A stretch of DNA of 64,000 bases from Escherichia coli (GTDB lineage: Bacteria > Pseudomonadota > Gammaproteobacteria > Enterobacterales > Enterobacteriaceae): assembly GCF_003334765.1 (NCBI RefSeq), contig NZ_QOWT01000005.1. One strand, written 5' to 3'. The notes beneath the pieces are model-generated. The model ran no database searches and was not told the origin of the DNA. It was given only the letters and a program-made list of their open reading frames with translations. The first letter of the stretch is position 1; each line of letters begins with the position of its first letter. Of the stretch, positions 8,258 to 40,591 are shown piece after piece. The translations under genes and the position numbers were made by a program.

Positions 8258-8590
8258 ATGTTAAAGCAGAAAATTAAAACAATATTTGAAGCATTGCTAT
8301 ATATAATGCTTACTTATTGGTTAATAGATTCTTTTTTTGCTTTCAATAAGTATGACTGGATGCTTGAGTCGGGAGGAAATATTTGCAGTATACCTTCCGT
8401 TTCAGGCGAAGATCGTATATTGCAAGCAATGATTGCAGCATTTTTTCTTCTTACGCCACTTATTATTCTTATCTTAAGAAAACTCTTTATGCGGGAAATG
8501 TTCGAGTTTTGGGTATATGTATTCTCGCTCGGTATTTGTCTGGTTTGTGGTTGGTGGCTTTTTTGGGGACGGTTTATATTTTGCTATTAG
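8258..8590 (+). CDS. ygiZ: Small inner-membrane protein YgiZ
   Basis: 110 aa hydrophobic ORF in a strongly AT-rich stretch between mdaB and qseC; conserved position. Confidence 0.7.
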   Translation: MLKQKIKTIFEALLYIMLTYWLIDSFFAFNKYDWMLESGGNICSIPSVSGEDRILQAMIAAFFLLTPLIILILRKLFMREMFEFWVYVFSLGICLVCGWWLFWGRFIFCY

Positions 8591-8635: not shown

Positions 8636-9985
8636 TTACCAGCTTACCTTCGCCTCAAATCCACCTTGTTCCGCATTCCCAAATTCAACATTCATGCCAT
8701 GCAATTTGGCGATTCGCTGGACAATCGATAGCCCAAGCCCGCTGCCGGTAGCGGTTTGTCCGGGGGGGCGATAGAAGCGTTCGCCAATTCGCGCCAGTGC
8801 CTCTGGCGTCACACCGGGGCCGTTATCCCTCACGATGAAATTATCAGCATTCAGCGTGACGTCTACCACGCTGCCCTGTGGACTGTAGCGCACGGCGTTA
8901 TCCAGCAAATTTCGCACCAACAAACTTAGCAATAGCGGTTGCCCGGTGCGTTTGATGCTGTGGGCATTGAGTGTCAGTCGCACGTCAATTTTCGCCTGCT
9001 GCGCCGTGTGGTAAATATCCATCACCGACGATTGCAGGAGATCTTCAAGCGGGATCTCCGCGACGTCCTGAAGGTTATCCAGTGAGTCCAGCCGCGATAG
9101 CGTGAGCAGTTGATCAACCAGACGAGTAGCGCGATCGATCCCGGAATGTAATTGGAGCAGTGCTTTTTTCCGCGCCTGCGGATCATCGTCAGAGAGCTGC
9201 GCAACTTCGGTTTGCACTTTCAGCGCCGTTAACGGGCTACGAAGTTCGTGAGCTGCGTCGGAGGTAAAGCGTCGTTCACGAACCATCATCGCATGTGTGC
9301 GGGCGAACAGTTGATTTAGCGACTCAACCAGTGGCCGCACTTCGCTGGGTACGCCAGTCGCGTTTAGTGGTTTTTCCGAGTCAGGGTCACGCATACGTAG
9401 TGCCAGCGCCAGTTTGTTCAGCGGCGCGAGTTCACGACCCAGTAGTACCATCATGATGATTAACATAATCGGCAGTGCGACCAGCCACGGGATCAATTGC
9501 CCGGCAACAATCGCCAGCGCCATGTCTTCACGGTATTCCCATTCCTGGCCAACAACGATGCGATATTTGCCATCAGGTGAGGTCATCCAGACAAAACGCC
9601 AAGGATCGTCTTCACCGACCAGTTGCCCGTCAGCAAAACCTTCCCGTTGATAGCTATAGGGAATATCTTCTCCGTTATCGCCATCATTAAGGACCATTCT
9701 GCCGTCGTGGGTAAAGATGGCAAAGGTCAGCGCATCGTCATCAACATGACCGTGTTTTAATCTATTTGGCGTCTGTGCCATGCGATCCGCCGCGTTGATT
9801 TCGTTGAGATCGAGCGTACTTAACCGCTTGGCAAACAGCATCAGTTGGGTGTCGAACAATTCATCGACGTTATCCGTTGTTTGTTTCCAGGCGACAAAGC
9901 TGGAAAGCAGCCAGGTCACCGAGGCCAGAATTAAAAAGATTAGCGTCAGCCTGACGCGCAGACTAAGACGTTGGGTAAATTTCAT
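8636..9985 (-). CDS. qseC: Sensor histidine kinase QseC
   Basis: 449 aa; two N-terminal TM segments, H-box ([14 protein letters not shown]), HATPase motifs; 4-nt overlap with qseB. Confidence 0.9.
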
Positions 9986-10641
9986 TTCTCACCTAATGTG
10001 TAGCCAATACCATGCACGGTACGAATAAAATCACTACCGAGTTTGCGTCGCAGATGATGCACATGCACTTCAACGGCATTACTGGTGACCTCTTCGTCCC
10101 AGGTATACAGTTTCTCTTCAATCAGTTTGCGCGGCAGTACTCGACCAGCGTTACGCATCAGTAATTCCAGCAGGGCAAATTCTTTTGGTTTCAGTGTTAA
10201 GGGTTCGCCAGCCAGCGTGGCGATACGTTTGCCGGGGTCGAGCATGACGTTACCGTGGCGCAGCTCGTTGCTGGCCTGGCCGTTGGTTCGGCGCATCAGA
10301 GCTTCCAGCCTGGCGGCGACTTCTATCAACGCAAAAGGTTTACACAGATAATCGTCAGCTCCCAGACGCAGCCCTTCTACACGTTCCGCCAGCGCATCGC
10401 GCGCGGTCAGGATCAGTACCGGCTCACGCTGACCTTTTTCTCGCCATTCGCGCAAAATATCGCGACCATCCATGCCTGGTAAGGTTAAATCCAGGATCAC
10501 CGCATCATAAGGTGCGCTATAAAGCGCCTCTTTTCCCTGACGACCTTGTGTAAACCAGTCGACGCTAAAACCCATTTTACTAAGGCCCGTTTTGATGCCG
10601 TCGCCAATCAGCATGTCATCTTCTATCAGTAAAATTCGCAT
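9982..10641 (-). CDS. qseB: OmpR-family response regulator QseB
   Basis: 219 aa; receiver domain (MRILLIEDD...[10 protein letters not shown]) plus winged-helix output domain. Confidence 0.9.
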
Positions 10642-11237: not shown

Positions 11238-11720
11238 ATGACAAACCTGACACTGGATGTAAACATTATCGATTTCCCATCAATACCTGTGGCGATGTTG
11301 CCGCACCGCTGTAGCCCTGAATTGCTCAACTACAGCGTGGCGAAATTTATCATGTGGCGTAAAGAAACGGGGCTTTCTCCTGTTAACCAAAGCCAGACTT
11401 TTGGCGTCGCCTGGGACGACCCTGCCACCACCGCACCGGAAGCGTTTCGCTTTGATATCTGCGGCAGCGTTAGCGAACCGATTCCCGATAATCGTTATGG
11501 TGTGAGCAATGGTGAACTTACCGGTGGACGTTATGCCGTGGCCCGCCACGTTGGCGAGCTGGACGATATTTCACACACGGTATGGGGCATCATTCGCCAC
11601 TGGCTGCCTGCAAGCGGCGAGAAAATGCGTAAAGCACCGATTCTGTTTCACTACACCAATCTTGCCGAAGGGGTGACAGAGCAGCGACTGGAAACGGATG
11701 TTTATGTGCCGTTGGCGTGA
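11238..11720 (+). CDS. ygiV: GyrI-like (AraC effector-binding-domain-like) protein YgiV
   Basis: 160 aa ORF; conserved position between ygiW and mqsR. Confidence 0.8.
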   Translation: MTNLTLDVNIIDFPSIPVAMLPHRCSPELLNYSVAKFIMWRKETGLSPVNQSQTFGVAWDDPATTAPEAFRFDICGSVSEPIPDNRYGVSNGELTGGRYAVARHVGELDDISHTVWGIIRHWLPASGEKMRKAPILFHYTNLAEGVTEQRLETDVYVPLA

Positions 11721-11849
11721 TGCCTGACTCCAGCTTCCCTTATAAATTCCTGCTTCAAACTGGCGCTACTAATGCGCCACTTTCTTATATGGTCAATCAC
11801 TTTCCTTAAAGAATACGTTTTGTGTGGTCACTATCTCCGTACATCTAAC

Positions 11850-11863
11850 TAACCTTTTAGGTG
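11850..11863 (+). promoter_or_regulatory. MqsA operator palindrome 1 (ACCT-TTT-AGGT core)
   Basis: Palindrome read directly about 65 bp upstream of the mqsR ATG; matches the remembered MqsA recognition palindrome. Confidence 0.6.
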
Positions 11864-11881
11864 CTTTTTCATTGCTGTAAT

Positions 11882-11896
11882 TAACCTTTTAGGTTA
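11882..11896 (+). promoter_or_regulatory. MqsA operator palindrome 2 (TAACCTTTTAGGTTA)
   Basis: Perfect palindrome read directly about 30 bp upstream of the mqsR ATG. Confidence 0.65.
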
Positions 11897-11924
11897 TAAC
11901 TAAAGTAACAGGGAGGCGGGGGTT

Positions 11925-12221
11925 ATGGAAAAACGCACACCACATACACGTTTGAGTCAGGTTAAAAAACTTGTCAATGCCGGGCAAGTTCGTACAACAC
12001 GTAGTGCACTGTTAAATGCAGATGAGTTAGGTTTGGATTTTGATGGTATGTGTAATGTTATCATTGGATTATCAGAGAGCGACTTTTATAAAAGCATGAC
12101 CACCTACTCTGATCATACTATCTGGCAGGATGTTTACAGACCCAGGCTTGTTACAGGCCAGGTTTATCTTAAAATTACGGTAATTCATGACGTACTGATC
12201 GTCTCGTTTAAGGAGAAGTAA
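11925..12221 (+). CDS. mqsR: Type II toxin MqsR (mRNA interferase)
   Basis: 98 aa; recognisable MqsR sequence; immediately followed by mqsA. Confidence 0.9.
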   Translation: MEKRTPHTRLSQVKKLVNAGQVRTTRSALLNADELGLDFDGMCNVIIGLSESDFYKSMTTYSDHTIWQDVYRPRLVTGQVYLKITVIHDVLIVSFKEK

Positions 12222-12222
12222 T

Positions 12223-12618
12223 ATGAAATGTCCGGTTTGCCACCAGGGAGAAATGGTTTCTGGCATTAAAGATATTCCATACACCTTCCGTGGACGAAAA
12301 ACAGTATTGAAAGGTATCCACGGTTTATATTGTGTCCATTGCGAAGAGAGCATCATGAATAAAGAAGAGTCAGATGCTTTCATGGCGCAAGTAAAGGCAT
12401 TTCGGGCTTCGGTGAATGCCGAAACAGTGGCACCTGAATTTATAGTGAAGGTTCGAAAAAAGCTCTCTCTTACCCAAAAAGAGGCAAGCGAAATTTTTGG
12501 GGGAGGTGTAAATGCGTTTTCGCGTTACGAAAAAGGCAATGCCCAACCTCATCCTTCCACAATCAAACTTTTACGTGTTCTGGATAAGCATCCAGAACTA
12601 TTGAATGAAATCCGTTAA
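12223..12618 (+). CDS. mqsA: Antitoxin and transcriptional regulator MqsA (zinc-ribbon plus HTH)
   Basis: 131 aa; N-terminal CxxC...CxxC zinc ribbon (CPVCHQ...CVHCEE) and C-terminal HTH; starts 1 nt after the mqsR stop. Confidence 0.9.
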   Translation: MKCPVCHQGEMVSGIKDIPYTFRGRKTVLKGIHGLYCVHCEESIMNKEESDAFMAQVKAFRASVNAETVAPEFIVKVRKKLSLTQKEASEIFGGGVNAFSRYEKGNAQPHPSTIKLLRVLDKHPELLNEIR

Positions 12619-12750
12619 TTAATGGAAAAGCGGGGGCAACTCGCTTTTTTCTTTACCGGAGTGTGAGCCAAATCACTCGCGATAAGTTTGAGCGAACAAT
12701 GCCACAGGCGTATTGTTGTTGGGCTTATAATTTCTCCGGTAAGGAATACC

Positions 12751-14358
12751 ATGTATACGCGAAATTTATTATGGCTGGTCAGCCTGGTAAGTGCGGCTCC
12801 TCTCTACGCTGCTGACGTTCCCGCCAACACACCGCTCGCCCCGCAACAAGTCTTTCGTTACAACAATCATAGCGACCCAGGTACGCTCGACCCGCAAAAG
12901 GTGGAGGAGAATACTGCCGCGCAGATTGTGCTGGATCTGTTTGAAGGTCTGGTATGGATGGACGGTGAAGGCCAGGTGCAGCCCGCTCAGGCTGAACGCT
13001 GGGAGATACTGGACGGCGGCAAGCGCTATATTTTCCATCTGCGTAGCGGTTTGCAGTGGTCCGACGGTCAGCCTCTGACGGCAGAGGATTTTGTCCTCGG
13101 CTGGCAGCGCGCGGTTGACCCGAAAACGGCAAGCCCTTTTGCTGGCTATCTGGCACAGGCGCACATTAACAATGCCGCAGCTATTGTTGCGGGTAAAGCA
13201 GATGTTACATCGCTGGGTGTCAAAGCGACGGATGATCGTACTCTTGAAGTTACGCTTGAGCAGCCGGTTCCTTGGTTCACGACGATGCTCGCCTGGCCGA
13301 CGCTGTTCCCGGTTCCTCATCATGTCATCGCTAAACATGGCGATAGCTGGAGTAAGCCAGAGAACATGGTTTACAACGGTGCCTTTGTGCTTGATCAGTG
13401 GGTAGTTAACGAAAAGATTACTGCACGCAAAAATCCAAAGTACCGCGATGCGCAACATACAGTATTGCAACAGGTTGAGTATCTGGCGCTAGATAATTCG
13501 GTCACCGGCTATAACCGCTATCGCGCGGGAGAGGTCGATCTCACCTGGGTTCCGGCGCAGCAAATTCCCGCCATTGAAAAATCACTGCCTGGCGAGCTAC
13601 GAATTATTCCGCGTCTGAACAGCGAATATTACAACTTCAACCTTGAGAAACCGCCATTTAACGATGTGCGAGTGCGTCGGGCGCTATATCTTACGGTTGA
13701 TCGACAGCTTATTGCGCAAAAGGTACTGGGGTTGAGAACGCCCGCAACCACGCTGACGCCGCCAGAGGTAAAAGGCTTTAGCGCGACGACGTTCGATGAA
13801 CTGCAAAAGCCAATGAGTGAGCGCGTCGCGATGGCAAAAGCCTTGCTGAAACAGGCGGGATACGACGCCTCTCATCCGCTACGCTTTGAGCTGTTCTACA
13901 ACAAGTACGATCTGCATGAAAAGACCGCGATAGCGTTGTCTTCCGAATGGAAAAAATGGCTGGGTGCACAGGTGACGCTGCGCACAATGGAGTGGAAAAC
14001 CTATCTTGATGCCCGACGAGCCGGTGATTTCATGCTGTCTCGGCAGTCGTGGGATGCGACGTACAATGATGCTTCCAGCTTCCTGAACACGCTCAAAAGC
14101 GATAGTGAAGAAAACGTCGGTCACTGGAAAAATGCGCAGTATGACGCCTTACTAAACCAGGCCACGCAGATCACTGATGCGACAAAGCGTAATGCGTTAT
14201 ATCAGCAGGCAGAAGTGATCATCAACCAACAGGCACCGCTGATTCCTATCTACTATCAGCCGTTAATCAAACTGCTTAAACCCTACGTTGGCGGTTTTCC
14301 GCTGCATAATCCCCAGGATTATGTCTACAGCAAAGAGTTGTATATCAAGGCACATTGA
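12751..14358 (+). CDS. ygiS: Periplasmic solute-binding protein YgiS (family 5, oligopeptide/dipeptide type)
   Basis: ORF 12688-14358; start chosen at ATG 12751 preceded by AAGGA; signal peptide MYTRNLLWLVSLVSAAPLYA. Confidence 0.85.
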   Translation: MYTRNLLWLVSLVSAAPLYAADVPANTPLAPQQVFRYNNHSDPGTLDPQKVEENTAAQIVLDLFEGLVWMDGEGQVQPAQAERWEILDGGKRYIFHLRSGLQWSDGQPLTAEDFVLGWQRAVDPKTASPFAGYLAQAHINNAAAIVAGKADVTSLGVKATDDRTLEVTLEQPVPWFTTMLAWPTLFPVPHHVIAKHGDSWSKPENMVYNGAFVLDQWVVNEKITARKNPKYRDAQHTVLQQVEYLALDNSVTGYNRYRAGEVDLTWVPAQQIPAIEKSLPGELRIIPRLNSEYYNFNLEKPPFNDVRVRRALYLTVDRQLIAQKVLGLRTPATTLTPPEVKGFSATTFDELQKPMSERVAMAKALLKQAGYDASHPLRFELFYNKYDLHEKTAIALSSEWKKWLGAQVTLRTMEWKTYLDARRAGDFMLSRQSWDATYNDASSFLNTLKSDSEENVGHWKNAQYDALLNQATQITDATKRNALYQQAEVIINQQAPLIPIYYQPLIKLLKPYVGGFPLHNPQDYVYSKELYIKAH

Positions 14359-23846: not shown

Positions 23847-23950
23847 ACGTTCCTCCTTTATATGAACTCACCGGAGCAGGCTCCGGTGAGGTGTTGTGAA
23901 CTTAAGTCTGGACGAAATGCCCGAAAACGAAAGTTTGAGGCGTAAAAAGC

Positions 23951-40522: not shown

Positions 40523-40530
40523 TGATTAAA

Positions 40531-40564
40531 GCCGGATGCGGCGTAAATGCTTTATCCGGCTACA
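40531..40564. repeat. REP (repetitive extragenic palindrome) element
   Basis: GCCGGATGCGGCGTAAATGCTTTATCCGGCTACA closely matches the classic E. coli REP consensus; lies between convergent hybG and yghU. Confidence 0.8.
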
Positions 40565-40591
40565 TAGCGATAAGCCTGCCAATGTTGCGAC

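Follow-up and report, generated by a model that had tools for sequence, protein, structure and literature searches.

Operators, promoters, and genomic setting of an mqsRA toxin–antitoxin module in Escherichia coli

Two adjacent open reading frames between ygiV and ygiS, preceded by a pair of palindromes, raise the question of whether this Escherichia coli locus holds an intact mqsRA toxin–antitoxin module whose antitoxin represses its own promoter, and whether the proximity of the signalling genes qseBC has any bearing on what the module does. We regard it as nearly certain that the locus is the chromosomal type II toxin–antitoxin module mqsRA of E. coli and that MqsA autoregulates the operon promoter, pRA, by way of the two palindromes; nothing contradicting the mqsRA identification was encountered. 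Our own evidence consists of sequence identity, the positions of the operators, the conservation of their motif and spacing, and the boundaries of the cassette in which the genes lie, while for the binding of MqsA to DNA, for repression, for the RNase chemistry, and for the internal promoters we draw on published work.

The module and its operators are already known, being among the best-characterised toxin–antitoxin systems, and they are unchanged here, as the original prediction allowed in calling them known biology. The value of the present analysis lies in the finding that gene and operator calls made from bare sequence were correct, in a correction of the significance attached to qseBC, and in a compact comparative result on the operators.

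The toxin and antitoxin genes

The toxin gene mqsR (11925–12221, plus strand) encodes a ribosome-independent endoribonuclease of 98 amino acids, and mqsA (12223–12618, plus strand) encodes an antitoxin and repressor of 131 amino acids with an N-terminal zinc domain and a C-terminal HTH-Xre domain. Both reading frames are intact, with 1 nt between the mqsR stop codon and the mqsA ATG, and a Shine–Dalgarno sequence can be read on the same strand ahead of each: AGGGAGG at 11910–11916, 8 nt before the mqsR ATG, and AAGGAG at 12210–12215, within the 3' end of mqsR. The genes are adjacent and co-oriented, the toxin comes first, and the antitoxin is the larger of the two proteins, as in the type II mqsRA architecture. 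In RefSeq, E. coli genomes by the thousand match a 1-kb stretch of the locus at 99–100 per cent identity, with the annotation ygiV, mqsR, and mqsA.

MqsR is 100 per cent identical over its full length to chain B of PDB entry 3HI2, and MqsA is likewise identical over its full length to 2KZ8, 3GN5, and 3O9X, the last of which we take to be the entry of the MqsA–DNA complex; both proteins have an identical chain in 3HI2, the structure of the toxin–antitoxin complex. With full-length reading frames and products indistinguishable from proteins of solved structure, the intact pair described in the original prediction is confirmed. Profile searches assign MqsR to Pfam PF15723 (MqsR_toxin; E = 6.1e-35, residues 5–97 aligned to model positions 1–95 of 95) and MqsA to PF15731 (MqsA_antitoxin; E = 8e-56, residues 1–131 of 131), and among NCBIfam profiles MqsA scores 146.7 bits against TIGR03830 (cutoff 61.8) and 43.7 against the zinc-finger model TIGR03831 (cutoff 20.2). 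No NCBIfam profile matched MqsR, which is still named MqsR in RefSeq. PADLOC returned nothing for MqsR and weak, HTH-level matches to RmrA for MqsA, so no defence-system assignment follows from it.

The residues on which function has been reported to depend are in place. Alignment of each window protein with seven homologues (the window being the whole 64-kb stretch of DNA that was analysed) finds Lys56, Gln68, Tyr81, and Lys96 of MqsR invariant in all 8 sequences down to 41 per cent identity, and Cys3, Cys6, Cys37, and Cys40 of MqsA, which form two CxxC pairs, together with Asn97 and Arg101, unchanged across 8 sequences with identities as low as 38 per cent. Catalysis by MqsR has been ascribed to Lys56 and Tyr81, with roles also for Gln68 and Lys96 (PMC9636575, PMC5422877), and in MqsA the four cysteines hold a structural zinc while Asn97 and Arg101 contact DNA (PMC2791442, PMC5422877). 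Diverged catalytic residues in the toxin, or palindromes lost in an alignment, had been named in advance as observations that would speak against the module; the residues are invariant and the palindromes are kept. GCU, a motif that MqsR cleaves, is present once in mqsR, where 3.4 copies are expected, and three times in mqsA, where 4.4 are; these counts are too small for a claim of avoidance.

Among other toxin–antitoxin systems, HigB–HigA (e.g. HigBA2 of Vibrio cholerae) is alike in gene order (toxin before antitoxin), in the HTH-Xre domain of its antitoxin, and in the RelE-like RNase fold of its toxin, and HigA-2 was the only non-MqsA match in a PDB sequence search with MqsA (E = 4.6e-4, residues 63–130). 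HigA, however, has no counterpart of the four-cysteine zinc domain at the N terminus, HigB depends on the ribosome, and the operators are unrelated; the likeness is one of resemblance and not of membership.

Two palindromes in the mqsRA promoter

Direct reading of positions 11500–13000 places ACCTTTTAGGT at 11852–11862 and TAACCTTTTAGGTTA at 11882–11896, with 63 and 29 nt, respectively, between their ends and the mqsR ATG at 11925. The first, the distal operator, is a perfect 11-bp palindrome (ACCT-TTT-AGGT) with one mismatch to the 13-mer AACCT-N3-AGGTT, and the second, the proximal operator, is a perfect 15-bp palindrome (TAACCT-TTT-AGGTTA). The exact 11-mer is found twice in the 64-kb window, the two copies lying 32 bp apart, against an expectation of 0.00 (mean exact matches over 100 dinucleotide-preserving shuffles). 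A scan of the window that permitted one mismatch found no further copy of the 11-mer, and the looser pattern ACCT-N2-4-AGGT likewise had no match in the window beyond these two sites, the qseBC–ygiW intergenic region included.

Published work on K-12 defined the consensus AACCT-N3-AGGTT, reported two copies of it in PmqsRA, and detected MqsA binding to both by EMSA (PMC4894380). The K-12 operators were mapped in U00096.2 to 3166595–3166609 (the 15-mer) and 3166629–3166639 (the 11-mer) (PMC4894380), a geometry that equals that of the window exactly, on the opposite strand and with a 34-bp offset. Palindromes of the kind that marks an MqsA-autoregulated promoter, AACCT-N3-AGGTT in the promoter of the operon, are therefore present at two sites. 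More broadly, the K-12 module (mqsR–mqsA, or ygiU–ygiT, b3022–b3021) has identical proteins, operators, operator spacing, and distance to the start codon; ygiV lies upstream and ygiS downstream in both, the internal promoter sequences are identical, and the only difference in the whole cassette is a synonymous change in mqsR at 12008 (A here, C in K-12). A 91-nt operator region was found in 2296 E. coli genomes and is 100 per cent identical in 2127 of them.

A relaxed sigma-70 scan predicts a promoter at the palindromes on the plus strand, with a candidate −35 element TTGCTG (11872–11877), a 17-nt spacer, and a candidate −10 element TATAAC (11895–11900), for 8 of 12 consensus matches. A strict sigma-70 scan found no promoter over the palindromes, TATAAC failing at position 6, which is C. 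The proximal palindrome fills the predicted spacer and runs two bases into the −10 element, so that operator and candidate −10 overlap. If this prediction is right, transcription would start near 11907 and the operator centres would stand at about −18 and −50.

Reporter data on pRA have been published. The primers listed in Table S2 of PMC6918082 map exactly to the window and delimit the pRA reporter fragment as 11725–11924, with both palindromes inside. This fragment was nearly silent in the wild type, rose ∼3.3-fold in raw fluorescence upon deletion of mqsRA (from 111 to 369 AU, with a background of 104), and was re-repressed upon complementation (Fraikin et al. 2019, PMC6918082). The comparison with the characterised mqsRA promoter that accompanied the original prediction thus comes out in agreement for both the K-12 operator coordinates and the reporter fragment. 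The two palindromes upstream of mqsR were borne out by direct reading and by the shuffles, and the reading of MqsA autoregulation stands on operators that match the published sequence and spacing and that lie inside a fragment experimentally repressed by MqsA.

The antitoxin gene is also transcribed from two constitutive promoters within mqsR, pA1 and pA2 (PMC6918082). The strict promoter scan gave pA1 as its sole match (TTGTTA, 16 nt, TAAAAT; 12148–12175, plus strand), inside the tested fragment 12090–12222; pA1 drives mqsA alone, is active, and is not subject to autoregulation (PMC6918082). The start site of pA2 was placed 111 nt upstream of that of pA1, with the promoter 8 nt upstream of the start (PMC6918082), and from these offsets the candidate extended −10 element TGT-TATCAT would lie at approximately 12056–12064 on the plus strand (−10 near 12059–12064). 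By primer mapping this candidate falls inside the pA1+2 fragment (11932–12222) and outside the pA1 fragment (12090–12222). Because mqsA has two constitutive internal promoters, operator autoregulation governs the full-length mqsRA transcript only.

Hairpins resembling terminators bracket the operon on the plus strand. The upstream one, a GC-rich stem followed by a T-rich tract (11761–11779; RNA fold −10.9 kcal/mol, z = −2.8), was returned by a terminator scan 41 nt after the ygiV stop codon at the left end of the cassette and may function as a terminator. The downstream one (12624–12650; −12.8 kcal/mol, z = −2.9), formed by AAAAGCGGG and CUCGCUUUU, resembles an intrinsic terminator.

The mechanism that these observations and the published biochemistry suggest may be outlined as follows. 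MqsR, a small endoribonuclease acting on single-stranded RNA, is reported to cut at GC(U/A) through Lys56 and Tyr81, and MqsA to block access of RNA to the toxin and not its active site (PMC9636575). Both this activity and growth inhibition are known from published work on the identical protein (PMC9636575). In a zinc-bearing MqsA dimer the N-terminal domain would bind MqsR and impose this block sterically, while the C-terminal helix-turn-helix would read AACCT-N3-AGGTT through Asn97 and Arg101. A dimer on the proximal site may exclude RNA polymerase and so keep toxin transcription very low, and a second dimer, on the distal site about three helical turns away, would lie on the same side of the helix. 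Published biochemistry, known to us through secondary accounts, suggests that MqsR bound to MqsA would dislodge it from DNA and would not serve as a co-repressor; the MqsR–MqsA complex was reported not to bind the promoter, so that the toxin is no co-repressor (PMC5422877, citing E. coli work). Transcript added by the two constitutive promoters inside mqsR maintains an excess of antitoxin despite the toxin gene coming first (PMC6918082).

The operator motif in diverged modules

If autoregulation through these palindromes is a property of the family, the same motif might be expected upstream of distant relatives. The comparison set comprised ten true MqsR–MqsA pairs on plasmids, with MqsA 36–67 per cent identical to that of the window, from an Enterobacteriaceae isolate, Pectobacterium, Pseudomonas, Rhodanobacter, Diaphorobacter, Caballeronia, Legionella, Magnetospirillum, Sinorhizobium, and Piscirickettsia. 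In each of them the toxin gene comes first and the motif lies ahead of the operon, in nine as the strict core ACC-N5-GGT; with the window included the strict core is present in 10 of 11 modules, Caballeronia having a one-base variant (AGCCT), and in Piscirickettsia one of the sites has GAT as its end. The core occurs 15 times in the 1430 nt upstream of the 11 modules, against 25 copies in another 90 kb of these loci: a density of ∼10.5 per kb against a background of 0.28 per kb, or ∼37-fold enrichment. Two MqsA-like antitoxins with an unrelated protein upstream in place of MqsR, on a Thiodictyon plasmid and in Pseudomonas phage Hali, were without the motif; a search of the phage collection found a single, distant MqsA-like protein (32.6 per cent identity), with a non-MqsR partner and without the motif.

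The half-sites are fixed, while the three bases between them vary from module to module (TTT, CAA, TTG, ATT, AAT, TTA, TAG, and others), as one would expect where a protein reads the sequence, and not where RNA forms a stem. Paired sites 31–32 bp apart are found in 5 of the 11 modules (the window, the Enterobacteriaceae plasmid, Pectobacterium, Legionella, and Magnetospirillum), and in Pectobacterium the pair lies upstream of an extra small open reading frame that precedes mqsR. In most modules TA-N3-T or a close variant follows AGGT directly in the same register, as judged by eye and with no control. Operator motif, pair spacing, and overlap with the −10 element thus appear to be conserved in modules down to ∼36 per cent antitoxin identity. 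The result agrees with regulation of its own promoter as the conserved function of MqsA and, taken alone, gives no support to regulation of host genes.

The module of Pseudomonas putida KT2440 (PP_4205/PP_4204) has been studied in its own right and is alike in gene order, half-sites (TTAACCT-GGA-AGGTTAA), and key residues (PMC5422877); there too MqsA alone binds DNA, and the toxin–antitoxin complex does not (PMC5422877). It differs in having one operator, which overlaps the ribosome-binding site. A single site is also what the plasmid modules from Pseudomonas and betaproteobacteria (L005–L008) have, whereas E. coli has two sites at a distance of 32 bp.

These results bear on the ways in which the palindromes, or the module as a whole, might have been misread. 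Each palindrome could in principle form a hairpin of 4–6 bp, and in an AT-rich region such repeats might either act in RNA, as leader hairpins, a terminator, or an attenuator, or have arisen by chance. An older description placed the palindromes in the 5' untranslated region, a placement that we count in favour of an RNA-level role. We nevertheless consider both possibilities exceedingly improbable. Chance is opposed by the two exact copies of an 11-mer for which the shuffles yielded none. The RNA fold of 11845–11900 (−9.8 kcal/mol, z = −1.7) is indistinguishable from that of shuffles, and in its best form one site pairs with the other, so that no two hairpins arise; across modules the arms never covary, ACC and GGT remaining constant while the loop changes, and if the promoter is as predicted, transcription starts downstream of both sites and would leave them out of the RNA. 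Moreover, MqsA binding has been demonstrated by EMSA with native and mutated palindromes (PMC4894380, PMC5422877). A loss of toxin activity or of regulation in this particular strain deserves equally little credence: some E. coli strains do carry IS1 after mqsR codon 26 with mqsA intact, but here both reading frames are full length, their products match those of K-12, the sole nucleotide difference is silent, and the operators, ribosome-binding sites, pA1, and terminator are all intact. Operators bound by MqsA, in a module that is whole, remain our reading of the locus.

The cassette, its insertion site, and qseBC

The window is collinear with E. coli strain C at 97.5–99.4 per cent identity (BLAST), and the 9 kb surrounding the module are 99.73 per cent identical to K-12, so that the window comes from an E. 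coli strain other than K-12. Alignment with O157:H7 defines mqsRA as a cassette, present or absent between ygiV and ygiS: homology ends after 11722 and resumes at 12649, with ∼6 bp (GGGAAT) in place of the ∼926 bp at 11723–12648, and the ygiV–ygiS gap of O157:H7 is 108 bp long, without mqsRA. On the left the cassette begins 2 bp beyond the stop codon of ygiV, and on the right it ends within 1–2 nt of the 3' end of the terminator hairpin; GC content is 40–42 per cent within the cassette and 50–57 per cent in the flanks. Inspection of the alignment revealed no direct repeats at the edges. The cassette may be self-contained, in that promoter, operators, genes, and terminator all lie within it, and it would have neither flanking repeats nor a recombinase.

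Among 5426 complete E. coli genomes, 2296 (∼42 per cent) carry the cassette, which is absent from ∼58 per cent; a reciprocal search found the empty junction in 3113, CFT073 among them, and the two groups together account for 5409 of the 5426. A 1-kb query gave a similar picture, matching over most of its length in 2283 of the 5426 and over its last 50 bases only in the others. The empty-junction genomes, including O157:H7 and CFT073, keep qseC–qseB–ygiW–ygiV–ygiS intact. One sequence labelled as a plasmid (NZ_MG591698.1) matched at 100 per cent, the only such match; it has parC, plsC, and ftsP aboard and is thus mislabelled chromosomal DNA, which gives no evidence for a plasmid-borne E. coli cassette.

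The order of genes in the window is qseC (8636–9985, minus strand), qseB (9982–10641, minus strand), ygiW, ygiV (11238–11720), mqsR, mqsA, ygiS (12751–14358), and parC. The original prediction put the module next to qseBC, which holds in the sense of a shared neighbourhood and is otherwise loose, the start of qseB at 10641 being on the opposite strand, 1.3 kb off, with ygiW and ygiV between. The significance that this adjacency seemed to imply finds no support: the cassette is missing from the majority of genomes, which retain qseBC, and no MqsA-type palindrome lies near qseBC. Its position there is explained by the insertion site of the cassette and is no evidence of a functional link.

There was some reason to think otherwise. 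Early work described mqsR as controlling motility and quorum sensing by way of qseBC (PMC4894380; reviewed in PMC4803016), and MqsA has been reported to bind similar palindromes of rpoS, csgD, and cspD (PMC4894380; PMC4803016), so that MqsA might be a global regulator and the adjacency a sign of coupling to quorum-sensing and motility signalling. We think this unlikely given that 3113 genomes hold the whole qseC-to-ygiS segment without the cassette and that the 64-kb window has an MqsA-type palindrome nowhere else. At near-native levels of MqsA, moreover, no effect was seen on the promoters of rpoS, csgD, and cspD, and for the phenotypes of the original mqsR::Tn5 mutant the strain background or polar effects have been held responsible (PMC6918082). 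What the module does for the cell in stress, biofilm formation, persistence, and global regulation is disputed between PMC4894380 (Wood laboratory) and PMC6918082. That dispute is about physiology and concerns neither the identity of the module nor its autoregulation.

What the operator comparison and the edges of the cassette have shown is neat and, we think, unsurprising. A conjecture on the history of the module is one that we advance tentatively and rate at somewhat below even chances as a whole: that the paired operator layout, with sites 31–32 bp apart on one face of the DNA and the proximal site overlapping the −10 element, is ancestral and has been under selection in alpha- and gammaproteobacteria, and that the ∼926-bp cassette entered the ygiV–ygiS gap once, from a plasmid-type source, and is now segregating at ∼42 per cent. 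Were the former true, two MqsA dimers would be anticipated to bind cooperatively or in a higher-order assembly. The nearest relatives of the cassette that we found outside E. coli are on Rahnella and Enterobacteriaceae plasmids, at ∼68–69 per cent nucleotide identity over the coding part.

The mqsRA cassette and its variable surroundings

The mqsRA toxin-antitoxin genes are carried on a discrete, AT-rich cassette of about 926 bp (window 11723-12648) that lies between ygiV and ygiS. This cassette is present in 2296 of 5426 complete Escherichia coli genomes, while an empty ygiV-ygiS junction is found in 3113, among them O157:H7 and CFT073. On the right, the cassette ends within 1-2 nt of where the module's terminator hairpin has its 3' end; no direct repeats were seen flanking the cassette, and no recombinase gene was seen with it.

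The toxin gene is also subject to interruption, as several E. coli strains have mqsR split by IS1 after codon 26. In strain 10034940-2 the interruption is at positions 526-1599 of the locus compared (L013), which corresponds to approximately window position 12003. The insertion spares mqsA as well as the region of the internal promoters, and the resulting allele is toxin-dead and antitoxin-alive.

A second presence/absence spot near mqsRA is ygiZ (window 8258-8590, between mdaB and qseC): the gene is found in the window and in K-12 and is missing in O157:H7 (L001). In strain PN43, ygiZ is preceded by an Hcp-family gene and a hypothetical gene. The 353 kb PN43 record in question (L010; NZ_MG591698.1) is entered in PLSDB as a plasmid and holds the core chromosomal genes parC, plsC, ftsP and qseBC; it is probably a chromosomal contig misassigned as a plasmid.

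The product of ygiV (window 11238-11720), a 160-aa protein, bears two names in RefSeq, 'AraC family transcriptional regulator' versus 'GyrI-like domain-containing protein'. It matches the SbmC/GyrI model only below threshold, scoring 39.8 bits where the cutoff is 179. At this length YgiV is too short to hold an AraC DNA-binding domain as well.

Operator layouts and antitoxin partners in other bacteria

In the module on a Pectobacterium odoriferum plasmid (L004), an additional 75-aa ORF (671-898) separates the paired operators from mqsR, an arrangement that suggests a three-gene operon controlled by MqsA. The plasmid modules of Pseudomonas, Rhodanobacter, Diaphorobacter and Caballeronia (L005-L008) have one full operator only. 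Upstream, a TTGCCA -35-like hexamer directly adjoins a left half-site, TTAACC, and the operator is followed, within positions -23 to -1 before mqsR, by a -10-like hexamer ending only approximately 6-7 nt before the ATG. This spacing leaves no room for a Shine-Dalgarno sequence between hexamer and start codon, and thus the mRNA from which mqsR is translated in these four modules may be leaderless.

MqsA-like antitoxins are also found with unrelated upstream proteins, on a Thiodictyon plasmid (L016, 852-2329) and in Pseudomonas phage Hali (L018, 1160-2100), and the AACCT-N3-AGGTT operator motif is absent from both loci. The Thiodictyon genes form a trio with a SecB-like chaperone after it, which gives a toxin-antitoxin-chaperone layout, and are adjoined by the DISARM gene drmA; the phage pair is adjoined by an integrase.

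Other features of the window

The only Rfam match within the 64-kb window is the ES173 sRNA (23885-23948, minus strand), which lies between dkgA and yqhD and scores 99 bits against a gathering score of 90; tRNA genes are absent from the window. Relative to the window, E. coli strain C carries 233 additional bases after exbD (29652/29653), and approximately 60-115 bp after hybG (40528-40591) are rearranged between the two. Our guess is that both indels are repetitive extragenic elements.

The minus strand (52730-56844, with neighbours at 47773-52695) carries a gene cluster for lipid biosynthesis that would not be expected in E. coli. It encodes a serine palmitoyltransferase, an acyl carrier protein, an SDR/epimerase and a fatty acyl-AMP ligase. 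The serine palmitoyltransferase matches the NCBIfam equivalog NF047599 at 597 bits (cutoff 500). Beside the cluster, lptF and lptG each occur a second time, together with a flippase-like ORF. The four-gene core of the cluster is found in 4068 of the 5426 complete E. coli genomes.
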